Assembly (NCBI GenBank): GCA_001823695.1
Contig: MHVD01000009.1
Location: 1 to 33,835 of the forward strand
DNA: 33,835 bases
Direction of reading: 5' to 3'
From: Candidatus Zambryskibacteria bacterium RIFCSPHIGHO2_01_FULL_43_25
Lineage (GTDB): Bacteria > Patescibacteriota > Minisyncoccia > Phycocordibacterales > Zambryskibacteraceae
Of this stretch, positions 16,972 to 27,313 are shown piece by piece. A program made the translations under genes and the position numbers. How positions within the stretch are numbered: position 1 is the first letter of the stretch; each line of letters begins with the position of its first letter. Under the pieces are notes generated by a model. It did not search any database. It worked only from the letters and a program-made list of their open reading frames with translations, and was not told where the DNA came from.

Positions 16972-17625
16972 ATGGCAGAAGAAAAAAAAACCGGGTTAAA
17001 ACTGGATGCTTTCGAAGAAATGGTAGTGATTTTTTTCGTGCTGGCCATTCTTGGTGTTATCTCCGAGCGCTTGCTTAACTTAATCGAAGGTCGGTCAGTC
17101 CTAAGCTCCATAATGAGTGGCGCTTTGTCTGATTTCTTTCACGCGCGCCTACTGCCGATACTCAAAATTATTGGTTTCCTAGTCTCTGGAGCGTCTTTTG
17201 TCGGAATTATATATGCTATTCGTAACTTAACCAGAATCAATACCGCCCTGAATGCGATATATAACCCGCCAATTCCCGCCGGTCTAAGCAAGGGCGATGA
17301 CTCTCCGCTCCGAAACATCAGGTGGGAGAAGATTTTGGTGCATCTTCGTTCGGATAATCCGAATGATTGGAAGTTTGCGATTATAGAAGCCGACATAGTA
17401 TTAAATGATATGTTAGATGCTATGGGCTATAGAGGAGAAACTATCGCGGACAAATTGAAGAATGTTGAAGAGAGTGATTTTCATACTGTGGATGCAGCTT
17501 GGGAAGCACACAAGGTGAGAAACATGATTGCCCACGAGGGAGCAAATTTTGCCGTTACGGAGCGCGAAGTGAGGCGCGTTATAGATTTGTACCGTCAAGT
17601 CTTTGAAGAGTTTAATTTTATATAG
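16972..17625 (+). CDS. Hypothetical membrane protein
   Basis: Two N-terminal TM segments; helical C-terminal domain (WKFAIIEAD, AWEAHKVRN.IAH). Confidence 0.75.
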   Translation: MAEEKKTGLKLDAFEEMVVIFFVLAILGVISERLLNLIEGRSVLSSIMSGALSDFFHARLLPILKIIGFLVSGASFVGIIYAIRNLTRINTALNAIYNPPIPAGLSKGDDSPLRNIRWEKILVHLRSDNPNDWKFAIIEADIVLNDMLDAMGYRGETIADKLKNVEESDFHTVDAAWEAHKVRNMIAHEGANFAVTEREVRRVIDLYRQVFEEFNFI

Positions 17626-17683
17626 TAAGCAAGTGGCTTGAACTGGTTTTCTATTTGCGTATAATGGGTGGTTGTTAGAAGAA

Positions 17684-17754
17684 AGCGGGGTGGAGGAGTA
17701 GTACCTCGTCAGGCTCATAACCTGGAGACATCAGTGCAAATCTGGTCCCCGCAA
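17684..17754 (+). tRNA. tRNA-fMet (CAT), initiator, divergent D and T loops
   Basis: A1:A72 mismatch, A11-U24, anticodon arm TCAGG-CTCATAA-CCTGG, acceptor GCGGGG/CCCCGC. Confidence 0.85.
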
Positions 17755-17761
17755 CAAGGAA

Positions 17762-17795
17762 AACAGAAAATGGCCCGATTGGGTCATTTTCTGTT
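17762..17795 (+). terminator. Bidirectional terminator-like hairpin after tRNA-fMet
   Basis: AACAGAAAATGGCCC-GATT-GGGTCATTTTCTGTT. Confidence 0.75.
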
Positions 17796-17843
17796 CCAAA
17801 ATCATTTTTTGTTATATAGTGTTTTTTGTTTGTCGGGGTAGCT

Positions 17844-17892
17844 CCCCAAACGAAATAACAGTCGACAAGCGACTTATTTCGTACGGGGCAAG
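17844..17892. mobile_element. 49-bp palindromic insertion in the D-stem of the outer tRNA-Met
   Basis: CCCCAAACGAAATA..TATTTCGTACGGGGCAAG; removing it restores GCTCAGTTGGT; homologous to 22624-22672. Confidence 0.75.
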
Positions 17893-17914
17893 CAGTTGGT
17901 TCTTTGGACTTTTA

Positions 17915-18025
17915 CCCCGTTACAGGTTAAATGACGGAGTAGCTCAGTCGGTAGAGCACGGGACTCATAAGCCCGGGGTCGTGGGTTCAATCCCCACCTC
18001 CGTCACATATAAACCTGTTTCGGGG
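17915..18025. mobile_element. 111-bp inverted-repeat-bounded element carrying tRNA-Met
   Basis: CCCCGTTACAGGTT (17915-17928) / AACCTGTTTCGGGG (18012-18025), 12 of 14 complementary. Confidence 0.7.
17933..18005 (+). tRNA. tRNA-Met (CAT), probably elongator (Ile2 not excluded); intact inner copy
   Basis: Full cloverleaf: GACGGAG/CTCCGTC, GCTC/GAGC, CTCATAA loop, GTGGG-TTCAATC-CCCAC. Confidence 0.92.
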
Positions 18026-18134
18026 CATAAGCCTCAGACAGTGGTTCGACTCCACTCATCGGCACAAAAATTATTATAATTTGAAATATGTAAACAGTAA
18101 TAGTAATGTGCTGTCACGTGGTATAATGTAATTA

Positions 18135-18821
18135 GTGCCGATATACAAAAAAGTAAACAGGAGCTTTTTTAAAAAATGGTCACCAAGAATGGCATATATT
18201 TTGGGTTTCTTTGCTGCTGATGGAACAATGATTGCAAACAACAGAGGGGCGTATTTTATTGAATTTCATGTCACTGATAAAGATATAATCTTGAAAATTA
18301 GGAAAGTACTGGGGTCAAATCATAAGATATCAATCCGTGACCGAGGAGTTAAAGAGTGGAAACTTGGGTATCGGTTACAAATTGGAAGTAAGGAAATGTT
18401 TAACGATTTATCGTTATTGGGTTTTAAACCTAACAAATCTAAAAAAATGGAAATGCCCGAAATTCCTACAGAATTAGTCAGAGATTTTGTTAGAGGATAT
18501 TTTGACGGCGACGGCTGCGTCTATTTTAAGAAACATTTTAGAAAAGATAGAAATAAATATAGTTGGGTTTTTACAACCAGGTTTACTTGTGGTACAAGAA
18601 GTTTTTTAGAGTCATTACATAATTTGTTGGATTCCTATGTAACTGGTGGTTATATTACTAACAAACAAAGGGGATATGAACTGGTATTTAGTAAACATGA
18701 CAGTCTTGCTTTATACAAGTTAATGTATCATACTGGTTGTCAAAGTTTATATCTAAATAGAAAATATAGACTTTTTAACAAGGCAATAAAAACCTTGTGC
18801 GGTTCGGATATGCGATCGTAG
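18135..18821 (+). CDS. Free-standing double-motif LAGLIDADG homing endonuclease-like protein
   Basis: YILGFFAADG and FVRGYFDGDG motifs, LGFKPNKS, L.RK; stop codon lies inside tRNA-Asp. Confidence 0.88.
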   Translation: MPIYKKVNRSFFKKWSPRMAYILGFFAADGTMIANNRGAYFIEFHVTDKDIILKIRKVLGSNHKISIRDRGVKEWKLGYRLQIGSKEMFNDLSLLGFKPNKSKKMEMPEIPTELVRDFVRGYFDGDGCVYFKKHFRKDRNKYSWVFTTRFTCGTRSFLESLHNLLDSYVTGGYITNKQRGYELVFSKHDSLALYKLMYHTGCQSLYLNRKYRLFNKAIKTLCGSDMRS

Positions 18822-19102
18822 CTCAACTTGGTTAGAGCACCCGCCTGTAGACGTGCAGCTTCTCCGCTAAAGCGGAGTTGAAACTCTCTGGGATAACGGT
18901 GAAGGCTAAATTCATCATATGATGAACATGCGAATACCGTGGGAACCCCGCTTCGTGGGCGGGGGCGCCGTAGAGACTAGATACCGGAGTACCTAAATTC
19001 GTTAACTGACGAGCACGGTAAAGATATAGTCCACGCCATTATGAAAATAATGGGTATAGTGCACGCGGGAGGTTGCCGGTTCAAGTCCGGTCGGTCGCGC
19101 CA
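18812..19102 (+). tRNA. tRNA-Asp (GTC) split by a group I intron: exons 18812-18848 and 19062-19102
   Basis: Joined exons give GCGATCG/CGGTCGC acceptor, CCCGC-CTGT^CAC-GCGGG anticodon arm, G73 and encoded CCA. Confidence 0.92.
18849..19061 (+). ncRNA. 213-nt group I intron at anticodon position 35/36, no internal ORF
   Basis: Exon ends in U, intron ends in G; P1 CTGT/GCAG with U-G pair; P10 CGTG/CACG; P7 GACTA (18975-18979)/TAGTC (19027-19031) in AAGATATAGTCC; P9 with GAAA loop. Confidence 0.9.
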
Positions 19103-19177
19103 TGAACCATACGGTTCATGGCTGTCCTGCATCGTATGGTGCAGGACGCCATGGTGTATATTGTATGGTATTACACC
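19099..19177. repeat. Three tandem short palindromes with GTAT/ATAC loops
   Basis: GCCATGAACC-ATAC-GGTTCATGGC; GTCCTGCATC-GTAT-GGTGCAGGAC; degenerate GGTGTA..GTAT..TACACC. Confidence 0.7.
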
Positions 19178-19201
19178 CACGAATTAGTATGATTAATGTA
19201 A

Positions 19202-19453
19202 ATGTATTACGTTTACATTCTTAAATCAGAGGCCGATAAAAAGTTATATATCGGCTATTCTGCAAATTTAAAGAAAAGATTTCAGGAACATCAAGATGGG
19301 AGGGTTAGGTCTACAAAGCCAAGAAGGCCTTTTGAGCTTATTTTCTATGAGGCATATAAAAGTAGACTAGATGCCAAAAGAAGAGAAAAGTATTTCAAAA
19401 CTGATAAAGGGAAAACGACCATAAAAACTATGTTAGAAAAATCTTTAGCTTAA
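19202..19453 (+). CDS. Small GIY-YIG nuclease family protein
   Basis: YYVYIL...LYIGYS.NLKKR...H, ST..RRP, AKRREKYFK. Confidence 0.9.
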   Translation: MYYVYILKSEADKKLYIGYSANLKKRFQEHQDGRVRSTKPRRPFELIFYEAYKSRLDAKRREKYFKTDKGKTTIKTMLEKSLA

Positions 19454-19500
19454 ACTCTACGATTAGGGATTTTTTGGTTCTAACTTGGTATACTCTTTTG

Positions 19501-19929
19501 ATGAGTTACAACGACAAAAGCCAAATAATCAGACACTATGACATGGTAAGTCCCTACTATTATTCTCTTTGGGGAGAACATCTTCACCACGGTTATTGGG
19601 AAACTGGAAAGGAGACAAAGGAAGAAGCCCAGCTGGCTCTGACAAAACATTTGGCTAAAGTAGCTGGTATAAAGCACAGCAGTAAAATTCTGGATGTAGG
19701 ATGTGGTTTTGGCGCGAGTAGTATTTATCTTGCTAAGTACCTAGATGCCAAATGTACAGGGGTCACTATTTCTCCAGTCCAAGTTAGTATGGCGCAAAAT
19801 GCGGCAAAAAAAGAAAATGCCCTGTGTGAATTTTTGCTTATGGATGCAGAAAAAATGGAATTTAATGAACCATTTGATGTAATCTGGTCAATAGAATCAA
19901 TTTCACATTACACAAATACTGAAAAGTAG
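19501..19929 (+). pseudogene. 3'-truncated class I SAM-dependent methyltransferase (tocopherol/sterol MT-like)
   Basis: WGEHLHHGYW, ILDVGCGFG, FDVIWSIES..H, then an abrupt stop at the start of a 68-bp repeat. Confidence 0.75.
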
Positions 19930-19997
19930 TTCTAACATTGCTCACCACAGTAGTGGGATATAAATCACTACGGGGCAGGCTAGTTCGCGCGTCGGTT
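19930..19997 (+). repeat. 68-bp direct repeat, copy 1
   Basis: 67/68 identical to 21160-21227; contains a GTAGTG/CACTAC hairpin ending CGGGGCAGG. Confidence 0.9.
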
Positions 19998-20120
19998 TTT
20001 CTCTAGTGTTTAAGCCATTAAAATCTATTGAAGAGGGGGTTAATTGTTCTCTTTTACACCATTAAGTGTTATGGTAAAATTAAAGTAGAGGGTGTTTTAT
20101 TATTAATAGGCTTATTTTTT

Positions 20121-21137
20121 ATGAAGAAAAAAATTGTTTTTTCGGCGATAATTTTATCGTTTTTCTTTTTTGTTTCTAGCCAAGTCTATGCTCAATCTTC
20201 CTACTCATCTCTTAATGAAATTGGTAAACAGTTAGAACAAGCTTACCAACAACTCCAAACACTAACACAAAACCTAACTGGCAAACTTACGGCAGCAACA
20301 GCAGGCTATAACACTCCAACAGTTGATTTAAAGGCAAATACTTTTGATGGCCCAATAACAGTTTCTTCTGGTTCAAATGTAATACTTTATTGGGTTGCTA
20401 CGAATACAGACTCTTGTACTATTTCTGGACCGAATTTGAGGACTTTTTTAGAAGGAGACAGTTCAATGCCTTTCAGCGGATCAGTAAATTCAGGGTTCTT
20501 AACAATGAATACAACGTTTACCATAACATGCACTGGTCCTGGGGGTACTGCTTCAGATAGCGTAACGATTAATGTGCTTACAATCAGCCCACCAATCATT
20601 TCAGACTTGAAAGTAAACTATTCTACTAGCCCCGTTACAGTTGCTTCCGGTTCAAGTGTTTCTATTAGCTATGTCGCAAGAAAAGCGGATTCATGTAATG
20701 TTTCTGGACCACTTGCGTGGAAATATTCCGTAAAAACTTCCGAACCATATCCGTCAACAGAAGTTTATATACAGGGTTGGGCAGGGTCAACAGCTCTGAC
20801 CGCAAACACAACATTTACTATTACTTGCACGGGTCCTGGAGGTACTTCTTCAGCCAGCGTAACTGTTTATGTGGCGAAGGGGGTCCCTTCAGTCACAATC
20901 TCAGCCAATCCAACGACTGTTATTACAGGTCAATCATCGATACTCTCTTGGTCTTCAACTAATGCAACTTCATGTACAGCAGGGGGAGGATGGAGTGGAT
21001 TAAAGTTAACAAGCGGATCTCAAGTAGTCGCACCGACTCAAAGAACAACTTATACTTTAACCTGTTGGGGTCCTGGAGGTAATATTTCAGGTAGTGTAAT
21101 AATTGATACTACACTCAATAAAACATTGATACGGTAA
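20121..21137 (+). CDS. Secreted Ser/Thr-rich surface protein with three Ig/PKD-like repeats
   Basis: Signal peptide (VYA|Q), three repeats ending T(F/Y)T(I/L)TCxGPGG. Confidence 0.8.
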   Translation: MKKKIVFSAIILSFFFFVSSQVYAQSSYSSLNEIGKQLEQAYQQLQTLTQNLTGKLTAATAGYNTPTVDLKANTFDGPITVSSGSNVILYWVATNTDSCTISGPNLRTFLEGDSSMPFSGSVNSGFLTMNTTFTITCTGPGGTASDSVTINVLTISPPIISDLKVNYSTSPVTVASGSSVSISYVARKADSCNVSGPLAWKYSVKTSEPYPSTEVYIQGWAGSTALTANTTFTITCTGPGGTSSASVTVYVAKGVPSVTISANPTTVITGQSSILSWSSTNATSCTAGGGWSGLKLTSGSQVVAPTQRTTYTLTCWGPGGNISGSVIIDTTLNKTLIR

Positions 21138-21159
21138 AATACAAGTAACAATCTCGCAA

Positions 21160-21227
21160 TTCTAACATTGCTCACCACAGTAGTGGGATATAAATCACTA
21201 CGGGGCAGGCTAGCTCGCGCGTCGGTT
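21160..21227 (+). repeat. 68-bp direct repeat, copy 2
   Basis: 67/68 identical to 19930-19997. Confidence 0.9.
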
Positions 21228-21238
21228 ATACTTAATAT

Positions 21239-21511
21239 ATGGAATTTAATTTTCTCACTGCGGGGCTTATATTTTTTGCGTATATATTAATTGATGGGAT
21301 GTATGCCTACTATACTCAGTCTATTGTAAAAAAGAGAGCTGTCATCTCTGCAACCACAGGTGCCCTAATGCATTTTCTAATTGCCTTCGGAGTTCTTAAC
21401 TATGTTCAAAATTTCTTGTATGTTGTCCCTCTAGCTCTAGGTTCTTGGGTCGGAACTTATCTTGTAGTAAAGAATGACCGCAGTTCTAACATCATCAAAC
21501 CTCGGACGTAG
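21239..21511 (+). CDS. Small hypothetical membrane protein (about 3 TM)
   Basis: Hydrophobic 90-aa ORF with an AT-rich ATG context. Confidence 0.65.
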   Translation: MEFNFLTAGLIFFAYILIDGMYAYYTQSIVKKRAVISATTGALMHFLIAFGVLNYVQNFLYVVPLALGSWVGTYLVVKNDRSSNIIKPRT

Positions 21512-21579
21512 CTTATGGGTTAAGCAGGGTTGTGTAGTAGAATGCTATAATTAAAATACTTATTAGTTTTTTGTTTATT

Positions 21580-21948
21580 ATGAACAACACACAAAAAGCA
21601 GTTTGGGCTCTTCGTATAGGTGTGGCAGGCGAATTTTTGGGACATGGAGTATTTGCTCTGCAAGGCAAACAGGATTGGATAAACTGGTTTTCAAATTTTG
21701 GCGTAAGCAACCCGAGCACCGCGTCAACGCTTCTGGTCTTGGTTGGAATATTGGACCTGCTGGTTGCGCTCGTTGTTTTATTCAAACCGCTCAAGCCAGT
21801 TTTGCTGTGGGCGGTGTTTTGGGGCTTCTGGACGGCTCTTGTGCGCCCGATTGTTGGTCAGCCGATTTGGGATTTTGTAGAACGGTTTGCAAACTGGGCC
21901 GCGCCTCTAGCTTTGTATTATTTGTTGAGCAACCAACCTAATAATTAA
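21580..21948 (+). CDS. DoxX-like membrane protein
   Basis: LRIGVAGEFLGHG, several TM helices, DFVERFANWAAPL; TGCTATAAT promoter upstream. Confidence 0.7.
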   Translation: MNNTQKAVWALRIGVAGEFLGHGVFALQGKQDWINWFSNFGVSNPSTASTLLVLVGILDLLVALVVLFKPLKPVLLWAVFWGFWTALVRPIVGQPIWDFVERFANWAAPLALYYLLSNQPNN

Positions 21949-22017
21949 TTCTACAATTTTTGTCGTAGTTACCCGATATCCTTTGGTAAAGGCAGAATTT
22001 TCTAATATCATATTAGA

Positions 22018-22503
22018 ATGCGTTTGAATGTTCCATATTTCAAACAGGATTTCATATATTCCTGCGGTCCTGCGGCTGTCCAAATGGTTTTGGCTTATTT
22101 CCACATAAGAGAGTCAGAAAGCAATCTGATTGAAGAACTAGGTGTTAGTGAAGAGATGTGGTCATCTAACAGTCTGATGATAGAAGTGTTTAGGAAAAGA
22201 GGTTTATACTGTTATGTGAATAAAGATGGCACCTTGGAACAGATAAAAAACTTTTTGGAAGAAGGAATTCCGGTCGTAGTAAATTACATAGAACCATCAG
22301 CCGAGGACGGTCACTTCGCGGTGGTTGTGAATCTGACGGATAGCGTGATTGTTTTGAATGACCCGTGGAATGGAGAAAATTTTGTGTTGAATAGGGAAGA
22401 GTTTCTGAATCGCTGGCATTCAAAATATGACGATGCTTCTAGGTGGTATTTGGCAGTTTCTGATAAAGATTTTGACCTGGGCAAAAGATACAGGCCAGTT
22501 TAA
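22018..22503 (+). CDS. Peptidase C39-like cysteine protease
   Basis: VPYFKQ...SCGPAA (Q, C), GHFAVV (H), LNDP (D). Confidence 0.85.
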   Translation: MRLNVPYFKQDFIYSCGPAAVQMVLAYFHIRESESNLIEELGVSEEMWSSNSLMIEVFRKRGLYCYVNKDGTLEQIKNFLEEGIPVVVNYIEPSAEDGHFAVVVNLTDSVIVLNDPWNGENFVLNREEFLNRWHSKYDDASRWYLAVSDKDFDLGKRYRPV

Positions 22504-22623
22504 ATGTTTCCCGTAATGGTATTATAAGTCCACGGTCGTGTATTTATTATACCGTCGTTGAAAATAGTGTTTCTGTATATTATGATTCGTCTGTTCTTTC
22601 TGATTTTTTATGCCGTTGTAGCT

Positions 22624-22672
22624 CCCCAAACAAAATATCGGTTAACAAGCAACCTATTTTGTACGGGGCAAG
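22624..22672. mobile_element. 49-bp palindromic insertion, homologue of 17844-17892 at the same tRNA position
   Basis: CCCCAAACAAAATA..TATTTTGTACGGGGCAAG. Confidence 0.75.
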
Positions 22673-22679
22673 CAGCTGG

Positions 22680-22719
22680 CCCGCCCGCAACGCATGAGCG
22701 GCTAGCAATGGCGAGCGGG
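22680..22719. mobile_element. 40-bp CCCGC...GCGGG palindromic insertion in the D-loop
   Basis: CCCGCCCGC...GCGAGCGGG directly before GAGC of the D-stem. Confidence 0.65.
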
Positions 22720-22727
22720 GAGCATGT

Positions 22728-22802
22728 GCCAGAGTAGTTCAGTGGTAGAACGCCTTCATGGTAAGAAGGAAGTCGGGAGTTCAATTCTCCCCTCTGGCTC
22801 CA
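22728..22802 (+). tRNA. tRNA-Thr (GGT), intact inner copy
   Basis: GCCAGAG/CTCTGGC, GTTC/GAAC, CCTTC-ATGGTAA-GAAGG, TTCAATT loop, encoded CCA. Confidence 0.93.
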
Positions 22803-22981
22803 GAATTAGACCTTCGGATTTTTGACCAGCCATTTCGTGGGCGGCGCACAGTGCCACCCATGCTTCGGACCCTTCTGTTTCTTTTTTTACAAAAAAACAA
22901 AAATGTCTTTTGTGTCGGTTTGTCAAGGTATTGGCTGATGGATATATATACTTATCAACATCCGTACGATATAATAAAATC

Positions 22982-25432
22982 ATGAAAAATAAAATTATTA
23001 GTTTGGCAATAGTGGGATTATTATTAGGAGGTTCATTAGGAGTACCATTAGTGCAGGCACAAACATCGAGTCAGCAGTCAACTCTTTTAGCGTCCTTTAG
23101 CCAAATTAATGAGGCTTTTATACAACTTTTAGCCTCGGTTATAAATGCCCTGGCAGGGCAAGAAGAAGAAAATATAGAAAATGACAATACTACTCTTCCC
23201 CCAGTTTTGAGTCTCTCGCAGTACACAGTTGATCTTCTCAATATCGCGAATGAGTTGAAACAGGCCCCAGCCGCAAAAAAGCAGGCAGCTACAGACCGTT
23301 TGTCAGAATTTGTTCAAATCAGAAAAGATGCCATGCTCCAAGAAATAAAAAATAACCCACAAGCGGTTATTAATAACGCTCTCCCCGCTTGGGCAGTCTC
23401 GCAATTACCACAGAATGTTATCAGCTTTGTAGAACAGCGGAAACAGATCCGCGGTAAATTTCAATATCTGGACGTTCATTACGGTGACTTTTATACCGGC
23501 ACAGCCGCTAATGAATTTTATGTAACCGAAAGTGGTACTGGCAAGCGCTATCGGGTTCATCTTACGGGAAGCCCGCAGGCCCTCACCGGCGATATGGTTG
23601 TCATTGACGGCATAATTCTTGACGATCAAATCGCGACCACAGAAAAATCAATCCAGGTTATTTCTTCTCCTAATAGGACAAGGTCTTCGACGTCGGCCGC
23701 TACCCCTTCTCTCTTGAGTAAAATTATAAACGCACTTGGTCGCAAGGTCGCCAATGCGCAAACAACTACCCCGATTCCCAAAAAAGTAGCGGTTATCATG
23801 TTTAATTGGCAGAACGATACGCGCACTCTGTCAGTGTCGGCCGCCAAGGGGACCGTTTTTACCAACTCGAACTCATCCAACAGCTTTTACAAAGAGAATT
23901 CATTCGGCAAAATTGAACTCGTCGGCAAATACCAATCAGATGGCGATGTTTTCGGTATGGTTACAGTGCCTTATGACAATTCAAACTGTAGCACTATGTA
24001 TAGCGTTTGGTCTGACGCCGCGGATGCCGAAGTGCAGAGATTGGGTTTTGATCTTTCAGGATACGATATAAAAACATATTTGTTTCCTTCAGTTGCTTGC
24101 GGATGGTCGGGTATAGCAGAAGTTGGTGGTTATCCAGCTCGGTCTTGGATCAGAAGTACCGATTTGGGCGTCATAACCCATGAATTGGGTCATAATCTAG
24201 GTTCCCATCATGCAAGCTCTTGGTCGTGCACAGAAAGCGGGGTTAGGGTGCCGATAGGCCAAGATATGAATTGTGTGATAGGGGAATATGGCGATCCGTA
24301 TGATGTTATGGGTTTAGGCGGCATGAGACATATAAATAATTCTCACAAAGATACGACCGTCTACTTCTCCTCACTGGATTGGCTAGATGATCAAAATATA
24401 TTTACAATAGATCGCAATATTGCACCTGATGCCACATACACCATTACTCCGATTGAATGGTCGTCTGCCGGCGTACAGGCGCTTCGCATTCCCAAAGATA
24501 TTTCCCCAACCGGATATCCTGAAACTTATTATTATCTTGAATTTCGCCAGCCTTTTGGATTTGATGACTTTGCCGCTTCCAGTCCTCCGGTAAATGGAGT
24601 AACTATTCGCATCGCAACTGATTACAATTTTATCGTGAAAAGCAGGCTGGTAGATACTACACCATCAACTTATGATTTTACTGACGCTCCCTTGGCAGTA
24701 GGCAAGACATTTACTGATCCATATAAACAGATTAACGTAACCACGCTCTCGGTTGCACCAGCAGAAGCTCAAGTGCGGGTATCTTTTGGGGCAGTGCCTT
24801 GTATACAAGCGAATCCTTCATTCTCGATAAATCCGACTAGTGCCTCGCTTTATGCCGGACAATCGACGTCATTTGCTTATACTCTTACCAATAATGATAC
24901 AACATCTTGTCCTTCCTCTAATTTCAGTATCACTCCGACTCTTCCAGCTGGTTTTAGTCAAAGTCCTTCACCTATAAATCATTCTCTGGCCGGCGGGACG
25001 GGAGTTTCGGGAACGCTTATCATAAGCTCTCCAACTGCCGCAACCGCAGGTTCTTACTCTATAACCGAGACGGCTCAAAATACTTCTGTCCCAGGCAACT
25101 ATCAATCAACGGCAACTCTTACCATGAATATCCTTTTGCCTGATACGATTCTGCCTATTGTCACGATCAATTCGCCCGCCAATGGAGCCACTGTGTCAAA
25201 AGGAAATGTTCAGATTGTCGTTTCGGCATCCGATGCAAGCGGAATAGCTCAAATACAAATCTTGGTTGATGGTGTATTGAAAAAAACCTGCTTTAACACT
25301 ACTTCTTGTTCAGGAACAGTGAAAGCGAATGGCCTGACAGTAGGAACGCACAATATCACCGCGCAGGCTACGGATAAAGGCGGGCCTGTCGCGAATACCG
25401 CAACCGCTTCGATTACTATTATCAAAAAGTAG
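22982..25432 (+). CDS. Secreted zinc metalloprotease (M11/gametolysin-like) with C-terminal Ig-like domains
   Basis: Signal peptide, HELGHNLGSHH zinc motif, EYGDPYDVMG Met-turn, YYLEFR, Ig-like tail (PIVTINSPANGATV, SDASGI). Confidence 0.85.
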   Translation: MKNKIISLAIVGLLLGGSLGVPLVQAQTSSQQSTLLASFSQINEAFIQLLASVINALAGQEEENIENDNTTLPPVLSLSQYTVDLLNIANELKQAPAAKKQAATDRLSEFVQIRKDAMLQEIKNNPQAVINNALPAWAVSQLPQNVISFVEQRKQIRGKFQYLDVHYGDFYTGTAANEFYVTESGTGKRYRVHLTGSPQALTGDMVVIDGIILDDQIATTEKSIQVISSPNRTRSSTSAATPSLLSKIINALGRKVANAQTTTPIPKKVAVIMFNWQNDTRTLSVSAAKGTVFTNSNSSNSFYKENSFGKIELVGKYQSDGDVFGMVTVPYDNSNCSTMYSVWSDAADAEVQRLGFDLSGYDIKTYLFPSVACGWSGIAEVGGYPARSWIRSTDLGVITHELGHNLGSHHASSWSCTESGVRVPIGQDMNCVIGEYGDPYDVMGLGGMRHINNSHKDTTVYFSSLDWLDDQNIFTIDRNIAPDATYTITPIEWSSAGVQALRIPKDISPTGYPETYYYLEFRQPFGFDDFAASSPPVNGVTIRIATDYNFIVKSRLVDTTPSTYDFTDAPLAVGKTFTDPYKQINVTTLSVAPAEAQVRVSFGAVPCIQANPSFSINPTSASLYAGQSTSFAYTLTNNDTTSCPSSNFSITPTLPAGFSQSPSPINHSLAGGTGVSGTLIISSPTAATAGSYSITETAQNTSVPGNYQSTATLTMNILLPDTILPIVTINSPANGATVSKGNVQIVVSASDASGIAQIQILVDGVLKKTCFNTTSCSGTVKANGLTVGTHNITAQATDKGGPVANTATASITIIKK

Positions 25433-25441
25433 ACACGTTCT

Positions 25442-25479
25442 TAAGCTAAAAATCGTTCCTCGGGGCGATTTTTAGCTTA
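25442..25479 (+). terminator. Terminator-like hairpin
   Basis: TAAGCTAAAAATCG...CGATTTTTAGCTTA perfect 14-bp arms. Confidence 0.8.
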
Positions 25480-25645
25480 TGGAGAAAGACCGCACAGTAC
25501 GAATGAAAAAGTCAGGATAAACTTTTACTCGCTGGCCGTCCAATACCCTACCATCCGTTCGAATACTTGGAAAACAAGTGACGGGGTTTCCTTAGTTCAG
25601 GAATTTTTGATAAAGTGAGTTCGAGCACAGTCGTAAAGATACTCA

Positions 25646-25706
25646 AGTATTGCCACCTTAGCTCAGTCTTGCCCGCCAAAATTTTGCCAGAGTAGCTCAG
25701 TTGGTA
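25646..25706 (+). repeat. 61-bp direct repeat, copy 1 (copy 2 at 25804-25864)
   Basis: AGTATTGCCACCTTAGCTCAGTCTTGCCCGCCAAAATTTTGCCAGAGTAGCTCAGTTGGTA identical in both places. Confidence 0.9.
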
Positions 25707-25797
25707 CCCGCCCGAACGACTGACATCGTTCAGTCGGGCGGGGAGCATTCCCATGGTAAGGGAAAGGTCATCGGTTCAATCCCGATCAACGGCTCCA
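25686..25797 (+). pseudogene. Chimeric tRNA-Thr(GGT): foreign 5' end, 36-bp D-loop hairpin (25707-25742) and the original 3' half (25743-25797)
   Basis: TTCCC-ATGGTAA-GGGAA anticodon arm and intact T arm; local 5' GCCAGAG has three mismatches against CAACGGC. Confidence 0.75.
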
Positions 25798-25825
25798 AGA
25801 TTTAGTATTGCCACCTTAGCTCAGT

Positions 25826-25948
25826 CTTGCCCGCCAAAATTTTGCCAGAGTAGCTCAGTTGGTAGAGCGACGCACTCGTAACGCGTAGGTCCCCGGTTCA
25901 ATCCCGGGCTCTGGCTCCAAAAACTAGCAAAAACTTAGGCGGGTGAAG
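25826..25948. mobile_element. Palindromic element carrying tRNA-Thr(CGT)
   Basis: CTTGCCCGCCAAAATTTTGC ... GCAAAAACTTAGGCGGGTGAAG imperfect inverted arms. Confidence 0.7.
25844..25919 (+). tRNA. tRNA-Thr (CGT), intact inner copy
   Basis: 76-nt cloverleaf GCCAGAG/CTCTGGC, CTCGTAA loop, encoded CCA. Confidence 0.93.
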
Positions 25949-26044
25949 CAGAGCGACGGTATCGTAAACCGTAGGTCCCCGGTTCAAGCCCGGGAGGTGG
26001 CTCTTGAAAAATATGTGGTTGTTAGTAATATAAGTAACGCACCT

Positions 26045-26275
26045 GGGTGAGAGCGGTGACTCGCAGTACCTAAGGGCTTGAGGAGCTATGATGGTGAGGG
26101 CACAGTCCAAACTCACTGGAGCTCGCGGGACTGCCGCCGGAGACTTGTTACTCCTTGGAGTAGATACCCAAGGTGATGGAGGGGGAAAGCCGACACTGTT
26201 GGCGAAGTCCCAAAAGCCAGGAACAGGTCGTTGTTCTGGCGCGAGGCGCCGCTCACCGCCGGCGCCTTTTTTTTG
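26045..26275 (+). ncRNA. Candidate structured non-coding RNA, family not recognised
   Basis: GC-rich intergenic block; closing stem GAGCGGTGACTCGC/GCGAGGCGCCGCTC, several internal stems, T8 tail. Confidence 0.5.
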
Positions 26276-26296
26276 AATTTTGTTAATATCAATTAC

Positions 26297-26374
26297 ATGA
26301 CCGATTCCAAGGAAGACGAGAAAAAGAAGATAGAAGAACTGGAAGCGCAGATGAGTTGTCCCGGAACGCTCTAA
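26297..26374 (+). pseudogene. 25-codon remnant of a prfB 5' end
   Basis: MTDSKEDEKKKIEELEAQMSCPG resembles the RF2 start MDKENIQKKIEELEERMGKPD. Confidence 0.55.
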
Positions 26375-26401
26375 AATAATTAAGAGTTTTGGTGTTAATT
26401 T

Positions 26402-27313
26402 ATGGATAAGGAAAATATACAAAAGAAGATAGAAGAGTTAGAAGAGCGAATGGGCAAGCCGGATTTTTGGTCTGACAAAACATTCGCCCAAGAAACTATA
26501 AAGAAAATTCAAGAGCTCAAAGATGAGATTGAGGGAGTAGGCAAATATGATAAGGGAGATGCTGTAATGACAATATTTTCAGGCGCCGGCGGAGATGATG
26601 CCGAGGATTTCTCGGCCATGCTTTTGACGATGTATTTCAAATACATTGCCAAGCAGGGCTGGTCGTACAGAGTTCTCCACGAAAATCGCAACGATCACGG
26701 CGGATACAGGAATATAACACTTGAGATTTCAAATCCTTCAACTCACTTTGCTCGCCCAGGATCTTTAGGGCCCTATGGGATCCTAAAGAACGAATCGGGG
26801 GTTCATCGCCTTGTCCGCATATCGCCATTTAACGCAAAGAAACTTCGTCACACCTCCTTTTCTTTGGTTGAAGTTATCCCCGAGTTTGAAAAAGTTTCAG
26901 AATCGGAAATAGAAATTCCAGAAACGGATTTGAAAATTGATTTTGCGAAGTCAAGCGGCCCGGGTGGACAAAATGTCAACAAGAGAGAAACTGCGGTAAG
27001 GGTCGTCCACACTCCGACGGGCATTTCTGTTCATGTTGACTCTGAGAGATCACAGGCGCAAAACCGAGAGGGAGCGATGGCCATACTTGCCGGCAAACTG
27101 TATAAGCGTCTTGAAGAAGAGAGGCAAGCGAAGGAAAAAGGCATGTATATCTCAAAGAGCACCCAGATAGAATGGGGCAACCAAATACGCTCCTACGTTC
27201 TCCATCCGTACAAAATGGTCAAGGACCACAGGACGGGAGTAGAAACAAGCGATATTGATGCTGTTCTCCAGGGCGGGATAGACGCGTTTGTTGAAGCTGA
27301 GAAGAATCTGTAA
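26402..27313 (+). CDS. prfB: Peptide chain release factor 2 (short form, no internal frameshift)
   Basis: SPF recognition motif (RISPFN), GPGGQNVNK, GVHRLVR, WGNQIRSY. Confidence 0.93.
   Translation: MDKENIQKKIEELEERMGKPDFWSDKTFAQETIKKIQELKDEIEGVGKYDKGDAVMTIFSGAGGDDAEDFSAMLLTMYFKYIAKQGWSYRVLHENRNDHGGYRNITLEISNPSTHFARPGSLGPYGILKNESGVHRLVRISPFNAKKLRHTSFSLVEVIPEFEKVSESEIEIPETDLKIDFAKSSGPGGQNVNKRETAVRVVHTPTGISVHVDSERSQAQNREGAMAILAGKLYKRLEEERQAKEKGMYISKSTQIEWGNQIRSYVLHPYKMVKDHRTGVETSDIDAVLQGGIDAFVEAEKNL

Follow-up and report, generated by a model that had tools for sequence, protein, structure and literature searches.

A tRNA-Thr(CGT) gene nested in the D-loop of a second tRNA-Thr(CGT) gene of a Zambryskibacteria genome looks like recurrent gene replacement

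A complete transfer RNA (tRNA) gene lying within the D-loop of a second tRNA gene with the same anticodon raises the question of whether the outer gene still yields a tRNA or has been replaced by the gene inside it. Two tRNA-Thr(CGT) genes are nested in this way at positions 25810-26002 of the window, by which we mean the whole 33,835-nucleotide (nt) contig MHVD01000009.1 (assembly GCA_001823695.1) of Candidatus Zambryskibacteria bacterium RIFCSPHIGHO2_01_FULL_43_25, which is contig C9 of a 603-kb genome in 23 contigs (G000) with a completeness of 93%. The nest looks like recurrent gene replacement and not like a working two-piece tRNA. In our judgement the resident tRNA-Thr(CGT) gene was probably inactivated recently by a palindromic element, named type A here, whose apex holds a working inner gene of a different allele, as part of a process that recurs in bacteria of the candidate phyla radiation (CPR).

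Genes for tRNA were called with ARAGORN and Rfam, stem pairs were counted by script and domains were assigned with Pfam profiles. The comparison sets were 400 other genomes of the order (301 for the 15-mer count given below), 60 relatives, CPR metagenome-assembled genomes (MAGs) and metagenome contigs. Genomes, contigs of G000 and loci are designated by G, C and L numbers.

Structure and origin of the nested genes

The nest of one tRNA-Thr(CGT) in the D-loop of another is real and was read at 25810-26002, where the initial annotation had placed it. The insert starts at 25826 as annotated; its end is at 25949 rather than about 25948, giving a length of 124 nt. The nest is composed as follows.

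25810-25825, + strand: 5' part of the outer (native) tRNA-Thr(CGT), identical at 16/16 positions to the intact gene of the relative G043 (L002:1481-1496); contains the acceptor 5' strand GCCACCT, positions 8-9, the D-stem 5' strand and D-loop nt 1-3
25826-25835, + strand: left arm CTTGCCCGCC of the type-A palindromic element, also present in solo hairpins and other nests
25836-25843, + strand: AT-rich inner stem or spacer AAAATTTT, kept in solo copies and in the nests L030, L035 and C19
25844-25919, + strand: inner complete tRNA-Thr(CGT), acceptor GCCAGAG, CCA encoded, 65.4 bits
25920-25937, + strand: 18-nt 3' spacer ending in AAAACTTA, the inner stem of the element
25938-25949, + strand: right arm of the type-A element, GGCGGGTGAAG followed by C
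25950-26002, + strand: 3' part of the outer tRNA-Thr(CGT), identical at 53/53 positions to L002:1501-1553; contains A21, the D-stem 3' strand, anticodon arm, variable loop, T arm, acceptor 3' strand and discriminator, CCA being absent

The inner gene was the sole full tRNA called in the nest by ARAGORN and Rfam, and Rfam gave the outer 3' part a partial tRNA match (25933-25998, 20.4 bits, E 0.86). The stems of the outer gene are fully paired, as first described (acceptor 7/7, D 4/4, anticodon 5/5, T 5/5), and those of the inner gene are paired at 7/7, 4/4, 4/5 and 5/5, respectively. The minimum free energy (MFE) fold of 25810-26002 (193 nt) is a nested double cloverleaf of -77.5 kcal/mol (z -3.67), in which the arms of the insert pair around the inner 76-nt tRNA in a helix of 9 pairs, in agreement with the pairing originally proposed; none of 200 shuffled sequences folded as stably.

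The intact tRNA-Thr(CGT) gene of G043 (L002:1481-1553) provides the empty site for comparison with the filled site of the window. The flanks are identical at 16/16 and 53/53 positions (69/69), and the D-loop TGGT alone is missing from the outer gene, replaced by the 124-nt insert. Since the outer halves are identical to this uninterrupted gene, the nest is beyond chance. The acceptor GCCACCT was found in 10 of the 13 tRNA-Thr(CGT) genes listed from relatives (GCCGAAG in 2 and GCCAGAG in 1), and the 15-mer GCCACCTTAGCTCAG was present in 136/301 genomes of the order as well as in the tRNA-Thr(TGT) of G000.

The ancestral cluster Met(initiator)-Met-Asp-Thr(GGT)-Thr(CGT) is preserved in L007 and L015. 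The outer gene, situated after Thr(GGT) and before prfB, occupies the ancestral slot, indicating that the inner gene is the newcomer. The latter matches the native tRNA-Thr(CGT) at 61/73 positions and is the only intact CGT isoacceptor that ARAGORN found in the genome. The exact 25-mer of the inner allele was present in 15/400 other genomes of the order, and this allele type is resident in other families of the order.

The suggestion in the initial annotation that the insertion is very recent is supported by the 69/69 unchanged outer halves together with an adjacent exact duplicate of 61 nt. On account of this identity to the intact ortholog and of the exact repeat, the intact outer stems are also read as a sign of recency, although selection may instead have kept them. 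The duplicate is followed by a further palindrome.

25646-25706, + strand: exact 61-nt duplicate of 25804-25864 (family D2, 100%), holding 6 nt of flank, the outer 5' part, left arm, spacer and inner tRNA nt 1-21
25707-25742, + strand: HP2' palindrome, a dispersed repeat resembling repetitive extragenic palindromic (REP) sequences, attached at GGTA in the D-loop of the duplicated inner 5' part

Other copies of HP2' in the genome lie at C4:14558, C2:77229, C17:47959 and C21:12372, and the copies of relatives are 90-97% identical.

The type-A element, its cargo and the proposed route

Type A is a dispersed palindrome of about 44 nt made of CTTGCCCGCC, an AT-rich inner stem, an apex and GGCGGGTGAAG. 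Its exact junction 19-mer occurred at 8 loci in 6 CPR MAGs labelled Saccharibacteria, Falkowbacteria, Patescibacteria, Parcubacteria (two MAGs) and 'bacterium'. Three of the 8 loci (L030, L035, L036) hold a tRNA-Val(CAC) inside a tRNA-Val(CAC), with the same arms and near-identical spacers. The remaining five are truncated tRNA 5' fragments that bear either just the palindrome or the palindrome and a further piece of tRNA; an intact tRNA comes next in all of them (5/5), and the fragment and the adjacent intact tRNA were of the same kind where readable (Met, Ile, Val-TAC). Left arm plus spacer was found in 6/401 genomes of the order, the five others having solo hairpins of about 44 nt only. Within G000 the type-A loci are the window, C19:14102 and two solo copies, on C8 and at C19:215. 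Type A is found repeatedly at unrelated sites, both inside one genome and across genomes, which fits a dispersed palindromic repeat.

The second type-A nest of this genome (C19:14102-14211, - strand) has a tRNA-Pro(TGG) between the same arms; its host is a second copy of this allele, in which the element has taken the place of the anticodon TGG. When 38 tRNAs were scanned for flanking inverted repeats, Pro(TGG) ranked at the top (13/14 positions), and Thr(CGT) and the inner Met gave 8/9 each. A scan of metagenomes returned 80 loci, with 9 of 82 occurrences of the 17-mer in tRNA context; the remaining occurrences were rejected as element copies, being chance matches in GC-rich DNA. The metagenome locus L102 is a Val(CAC) nest preceded by a duplicate of about 80 nt (outer 5' part, arm and inner 5' part), which terminates in another D-loop palindrome, the same two-layer architecture as at 25646-25803 of the window. 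The anticodon of the cargo equals that of the host in every cargo case found, namely Thr(CGT) in the window, Pro(TGG) on C19 and Val(CAC) in L030, L035, L036 and L102; hosts with another anticodon, or sites outside a tRNA gene, yielded no cargo copy. In viral contigs, two scans gave 5 loci, none in a hairpin or tRNA context.

Two solo copies were noted for their setting. One (L163; G139:C7, near 11087) is apparently inside an open reading frame (ORF) whose frame was read by eye, suggesting in-frame tolerance. The other, at C8:18700-18930 (- strand), has some 150 nt after it an orphan T-arm and acceptor-like 3' end (GACTG TTCGATT CAGTC CGGGGGC A), where no tRNA was called. The motif TTGG, which fits the D-loop and the Pro anticodon loop, yet occurs at 1/5 solo copies, was dropped as a target motif.

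The best explanation for the nest is a recurrent process in CPR bacteria: GC-rich palindromes break native tRNA genes in the D-loop or the anticodon loop, and an intact tRNA with the same anticodon lies inside or beside the broken gene. At the Thr(CGT) locus a type-A palindrome would have displaced TGGT in the D-loop of the resident gene, and its apex would hold a complete, promoterless tRNA-Thr(CGT) of another allele as the working gene. The outer 5' part and the inner gene are just 18 nt apart (arm plus spacer), and a search of these 18 nt for a promoter-like site, a weak test, found none. Because of this short gap lacking a promoter-like site, the inner tRNA is probably made from the outer transcript, making co-transcription of both tRNAs, raised by the initial annotation, plausible. 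Read-through from the outer promoter is the most likely means of expression. The inner tRNA would then be excised by the ordinary enzymes that process tRNA 5' and 3' ends, and the two outer pieces would be by-products with no demonstrated role.

As to how a tRNA enters the apex, we favour capture at the palindrome centre. The palindrome would land first, a break at its centre would be repaired by capture or exchange of an isoacceptor gene, and selection would retain only those rescues that have the same anticodon. This order is favoured because arms and spacers are constant while the cargo varies, and because no cargo copy was found outside a same-anticodon host. A transposase cannot account for the same-anticodon rule. 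The transposase family PF01797 (Y1) has 3 matches in the genome, the best being IS200-like (C15:65955-66317, 107.7 bits). Its gene lies at C15:65829-66397 between hairpins with CCCCGCCC/GGGCGGGG stems, linked to type A by similar stem sequence alone. The palindromes could be mobile by means of IS200-like Y1 transposases, and single-strand transposition would be a reasonable vehicle for the solo elements; homing endonucleases may contribute as well.

Two further ORFs of the Y1 family, on C19 and C21, have palindromes of their own at both ends, and the C19 ORF also has an internal one. Integron attC sites, a rolling-circle origin and simple unequal crossing-over were worked through by hand and rejected, none of them yielding a single left arm, cargo and single right arm, or the context upstream of 25646.

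A wider proposal, which we regard as possible and still tentative, is that CPR bacteria have a tRNA gene-replacement system new to description: palindromes of about 44 nt would land in conserved tRNA loops, their apex would dock a promoterless tRNA of the same anticodon, often of a foreign allele, the promoter of the victim would be used, and alleles would layer and spread from lineage to lineage. Nested layers two deep are seen in L102 and in the window. In a bolder version, the paired outer halves and arms may be kept temporarily to guide processing of the inner tRNA.

Two other origins of the nest were weighed. In the first, a cassette with a foreign tRNA allele entered the resident gene once a homing endonuclease or integrase had cut it at a specific site, the native halves are what untidy repair left, and the palindromes settled later in DNA that was already dead. 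Endonuclease genes do occur near broken tRNA genes: a LAGLIDADG ORF (18135-18821) adjoins the tRNA-Met nest described below, a GIY-YIG ORF follows a broken tRNA-Asn fragment on C15, and G033 has a GIY-YIG ORF, a foreign Thr(TGT) and a native 3' part together. In addition, the end of an HNH-like ORF, read by eye from the sequence, stands upstream of Thr(CGT) in G043, fold-back palindromes are present at the breakpoints of tRNA-Thr fragments in the order, and ORFs resembling a serine recombinase and an HNH/AP2 endonuclease (named by eye) lie upstream of HP2' in the metagenome contig L100. However, no endonuclease or integrase ORF is found in or beside the Thr(CGT) nest, whose 124-nt insert holds no ORF, and the sole tyrosine integrase match (PF00589) is on C19. 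A cut-and-repair scar does not predict a cargo placed precisely at the apex of a conserved palindrome, as it is here, and the inner genes share the D-arm sequence, so they would not be immune to a D-loop cutter. We consider this origin unlikely.

In the second, palindrome and tRNA moved as one unit, a miniature inverted-repeat transposon with a tRNA passenger. The termini, CTTGCCCGCC and the reverse complement of GGCGGGTGAAG, form the inverted repeats that such a unit needs, the inner allele is foreign to the GCCACCT family of the genome, and Y1 transposases are present. Against this, the cargos all differ and each matches the anticodon of its host, which a transposase cannot read; no cargo was found outside a gene of the same anticodon, five other genomes of the order have solo copies only, and target duplication was not seen. 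Joint movement also seems a doubtful account of the nest.

Fate of the outer gene and support for the locus

The initial annotation had proposed a working outer tRNA in two pieces, with the inner tRNA acting like an intron. This was not borne out, given the loss of TGGT, the failure to find EndA, RtcB, a bulge-helix-bulge motif or an Rfam intron, and the decay of outer copies elsewhere. The insert removes TGGT from the D-loop, including the conserved GG, which in tRNA normally contacts the T-loop. EndA (PF01974) and RtcB (PF01139) gave no match in the 93%-complete genome, where control profiles matched. The MFE fold has no bulge-helix-bulge; the helix of D-stem and arms is interrupted by single-nucleotide internal loops, with no 3-nt bulges spaced 4 bp apart. 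No intron or ribozyme family was detected in the nest by Rfam over 22500-26450 at E up to 1, which returned only tRNA and chance matches, and the same method did recover the group I intron of the tRNA-Asp gene of this window.

The decay of outer stems in relatives, named beforehand as the mark of a recent pseudogene, was seen in L035, L036 and the Pro and Met nests, which are parallel events and not orthologs. In L035 the outer acceptor retains 3 Watson-Crick pairs and 1 G-U of 7 and the anticodon stem 4/5, and in L036 the outer T-loop reads TCCAAGT. Stem-breaking substitutions number zero in the outer copy of the window and are present in L035, L036, the C19 Pro nest and the Met nest. The outer gene combines the loss of a conserved D-loop element with an intact inner gene of the same anticodon, as expected of a pseudogene. 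In the RNA runs, at most 0.06 of the sampled words were present. From its sequence, the best reading of the outer gene is a recent pseudogene shell around a working inner gene, and we infer that it does not function.

The alternative is that the outer gene works, the insert being removed or tolerated, or the pieces pairing through acceptor (7 bp), D stem (4 bp) and arms (9 bp) as a split tRNA; as a variant, they would be a scaffold for the inner tRNA. Its strongest point is that all outer stems are intact in 3/5 D-loop nests (window, L030, L102) whose sequences differ, to which may be added the clean nested cloverleaf of the fold and the conservation of the arms across CPR lineages. This conservation, however, is one of arm sequence and does not show covariation, the solo-hairpin copies are truncated in 5/5 cases, and the outer copies are decayed or lack the anticodon in L035, L036, the C19 Pro nest and the Met nest. 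The inner gene already provides the same anticodon, and the replaced GG, the splicing genes that were not found and the absent motif count here as well. A working outer gene is quite improbable.

Support for the locus came from L100, an independently deposited metagenome contig that could share reads with this assembly, which is 100% identical over 379 nt (25707-26085) and covers the whole nest. Logan contigs of 4 runs (X1, X2, X3, X6) were also compared over 17500-26500, and 21184-22842, 22822-25626 and 25974-26500 were covered without differences. The joints listed in 25627-25973 have short sides and are probably tRNAs of other organisms and HP2 copies.

Besides the intact stems of the three nests, several observations weigh against replacement by a type-A cargo. 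The nest is known from a metagenome-assembled contig, no Logan piece among those listed bridges 25627-25973, and L100:1-1234 (reverse complement) has AT-rich DNA upstream of HP2', unlike the window, leaving the junction 25706/25707 unconfirmed by L100. Four of the 6 same-anticodon cases were found through a pattern that includes the tRNA D-arm, by which a tRNA host was guaranteed and the same anticodon was not, and some Val(CAC) cases may share ancestry, as a tRNA-Ala lies downstream in both L036 and L102. Around the solo copies neither target duplication nor a consistent target motif was seen, which bears on the supposed mode of transposition. No close donor of the inner allele, above about 86% identity, was found among the tRNA-Thr of the 60 relatives, and the best candidate matched at 62/76 positions among 17 tRNA-Thr genes with a similar acceptor stem at 14 loci.

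L100 may stem from a strain variant in which a mobile element lies at the native Thr(GGT), or it may be a chimera formed across the repeat. In that contig, the upstream ORF resembling an HNH/AP2 endonuclease runs into the repeat. That the nest itself is an artefact, a misjoin of tRNA-derived repeats in metagenome assembly, is highly improbable: an exact 61-nt repeat in a MAG contig, the differing upstream part of L100 and the lack of a spanning Logan piece speak for it, but L100 reproduces 25707-26085 exactly, the same architecture recurs in the unrelated assemblies L030, L035, L036 and L102 and on C19, and the longest runs common to the inner and native tRNAs are 15-19 nt, probably too short to mislead the usual k-mers.

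Other broken tRNA genes and relation to known systems

Two more native tRNAs of the cluster, Met and Thr(GGT), are broken, with an intact replacement inside or beside each. Together with Thr-CGT and Pro-TGG, the resident genes for at least 4 tRNAs have been wrecked in one 0.6-Mb genome.

17832-18064, + strand: decayed outer elongator tRNA-Met (GTCGGGG TA GCTC, the palindrome HP1, AGTTGG)
22612-22725, + strand: 5' part of the native tRNA-Thr(GGT) (GCCGTTG TA GCTC), with HP1 and HP2 in the D-loop, cut after GAGCAT
22728-22802, + strand: intact replacement tRNA-Thr(GGT), acceptor GCCAGAG as in the inner Thr(CGT)
25743-25797, + strand: 3' part of the native tRNA-Thr(GGT), from the D-stem 3' strand to CCA, acceptor 3' strand CAACGGC; partial tRNA match of 26.6 bits

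In the Met nest an imperfect inverted repeat of 14 nt surrounds the intact inner tRNA-Met (17933-18006); in the outer 3' remnant the anticodon loop is shortened and the acceptor strand no longer complementary. The Thr(GGT) gene is arranged as 5' part, intact replacement and an ORF of 840 aa resembling a peptidase, then, about 3 kb downstream, the 3' part preceded by HP2'. Intact tRNA-Thr(GGT) genes of the GCCGTTG type are found in L004, L007 and L016. The outer 5' part of the Thr(CGT) nest starts 12 nt past the 3' end of the native tRNA-Thr(GGT). The nest has the peptidase-like ORF and prfB (release factor 2) as neighbours, prfB following the outer 3' part. The window further encodes a type IV pilus ATPase, release factor 2, FtsE/X and CTP synthase, as identified by Pfam. 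A phage origin of the window was rejected on this bacterial Pfam set and since matches to a phage collection were of tRNA length only. Genome size, gene content and the MAGs that share its elements point to a CPR-type bacterium.

Several side observations concern tRNA genes of the cluster and genome. HP1 (about 50 nt; 17845-17895 and 22625-22675) has an identical insertion point in the dead Met and Thr-GGT genes, directly behind the D-stem 5' strand, and no further copies were found in the genome. The anticodon loop of the tRNA-Asp(GTC) gene (18812-19102) is interrupted by a group I intron of 213 nt (ARAGORN; Rfam Intron_gpI 41.6 bits, E 9e-9, under the gathering score), and the free-standing double-LAGLIDADG ORF at 18135-18821 overlaps the 5' end of this tRNA gene, ending 10 nt inside it. 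At C15:230-330 (- strand) a tRNA-Asn-like 5' fragment, with a CCTGCC...GGCAGG hairpin in the D-loop, breaks off directly behind the anticodon GTT, and the GIY-YIG ORF then extends up to the contig end; an intact tRNA-Asn lies at C18:3-75, and the two contig ends may abut. At C20:15890-15950, after tRNA-Leu(CAA), a Met-like tRNA 3' fragment has a hairpin in the anticodon loop region, and its acceptor CTCCGAC could pair, with one G-U, with the outer-Met GTCGGGG at 17832 of the window.

Elsewhere in the order, partial copies flank intact tRNA-Thr genes at L021-L028 (G157, G221, G295, G312, G228, G109, G206, G254) and L008 (G053). The upstream 5' copies extend to the anticodon loop and then turn back as reverse complement, and the downstream ones are 3' copies; many have a hairpin between D arm and anticodon loop, and some units are in tandem. 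In L176 (G044:C1, locus 1233-1500) a native-type tRNA-Thr(GGT) is split after the anticodon by about 190 nt, followed by the 3' half.

To our knowledge tRNA genes are usually treated as static; for bacteria, the recognized exceptions are self-splicing introns that interrupt them and islands that land in them. The nest fails the tested hallmarks of spliced or split tRNAs and of self-splicing introns and fits a dispersed palindrome inserted in a gene. REP sequences with their REP-associated tyrosine transposases (RAYT) and the miniature derivatives of IS200/IS605 are small palindromes moved by HUH/Y1 transposases, and similar GC-rich palindromes insert into genes in organelles and Rickettsia. 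Type A resembles them as a short, GC-rich palindrome with multiple copies within and between genomes, in the presence of Y1 genes with similar flanking hairpins, and in having at least one copy apparently within a coding region (L163). It is unlike them in the whole tRNA at its apex, the same-anticodon tRNA as host and the precise, repeated insertion points in the D-loop.

Genomic islands and prophages that insert in a tRNA gene restore it and leave part of the tRNA duplicated. As in such islands, tRNA fragments here flank inserted DNA and a supplied copy keeps the function, and the 3.1-kb block 22726-25742 between the Thr(GGT) halves fits this pattern. The Thr(CGT) insert differs in its length of 124 nt, the lack of a recombinase, the whole tRNA in place of a 3' end, the junction in the D-loop and halves that are not direct repeats. 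Bacterial group I introns of the anticodon loop are represented in the window by that of tRNA-Asp, whereas the Thr(CGT) insert lies in the D-loop and has no ribozyme match.

Disrupted tRNAs of archaea include non-canonical introns, some of them in the D-loop, as well as split and permuted tRNAs (PMC4033280, PMC3218864, PMC3978253, PMC10714607). They share with the nest a helix-closed intervening sequence in the D-loop and exon halves that still pair as a cloverleaf. The nest, unlike them, is bacterial and has no bulge-helix-bulge, EndA and RtcB were not found, its insert holds a whole tRNA of the same anticodon, and TGGT is replaced and not just interrupted. SegB is described as a free-standing homing endonuclease in the tRNA gene cluster of phage T4 (PMC2330249). 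Here, too, endonuclease genes lie among tRNA genes and tRNA alleles have been replaced, with LAGLIDADG and GIY-YIG ORFs beside broken tRNAs; the Thr(CGT) nest has no endonuclease gene, however.

Literature searches, with subscription journals and supplements outside their scope, found neither a tRNA nested within another tRNA nor a palindrome in the D-loop of a bacterial tRNA described. As far as these searches show, the complete tRNA at the apex and the host with the same anticodon are unreported features. If the process is general, it would account for the patchy distribution of tRNA-Thr acceptor-stem alleles inside individual genera of the family, and annotators would be warned that tRNA finders miss or miscall such nests. 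It would also be a tractable case of the selfish turnover of an essential RNA gene, and the nest offers a natural test of how far a tRNA precursor tolerates disruption of the D-loop.

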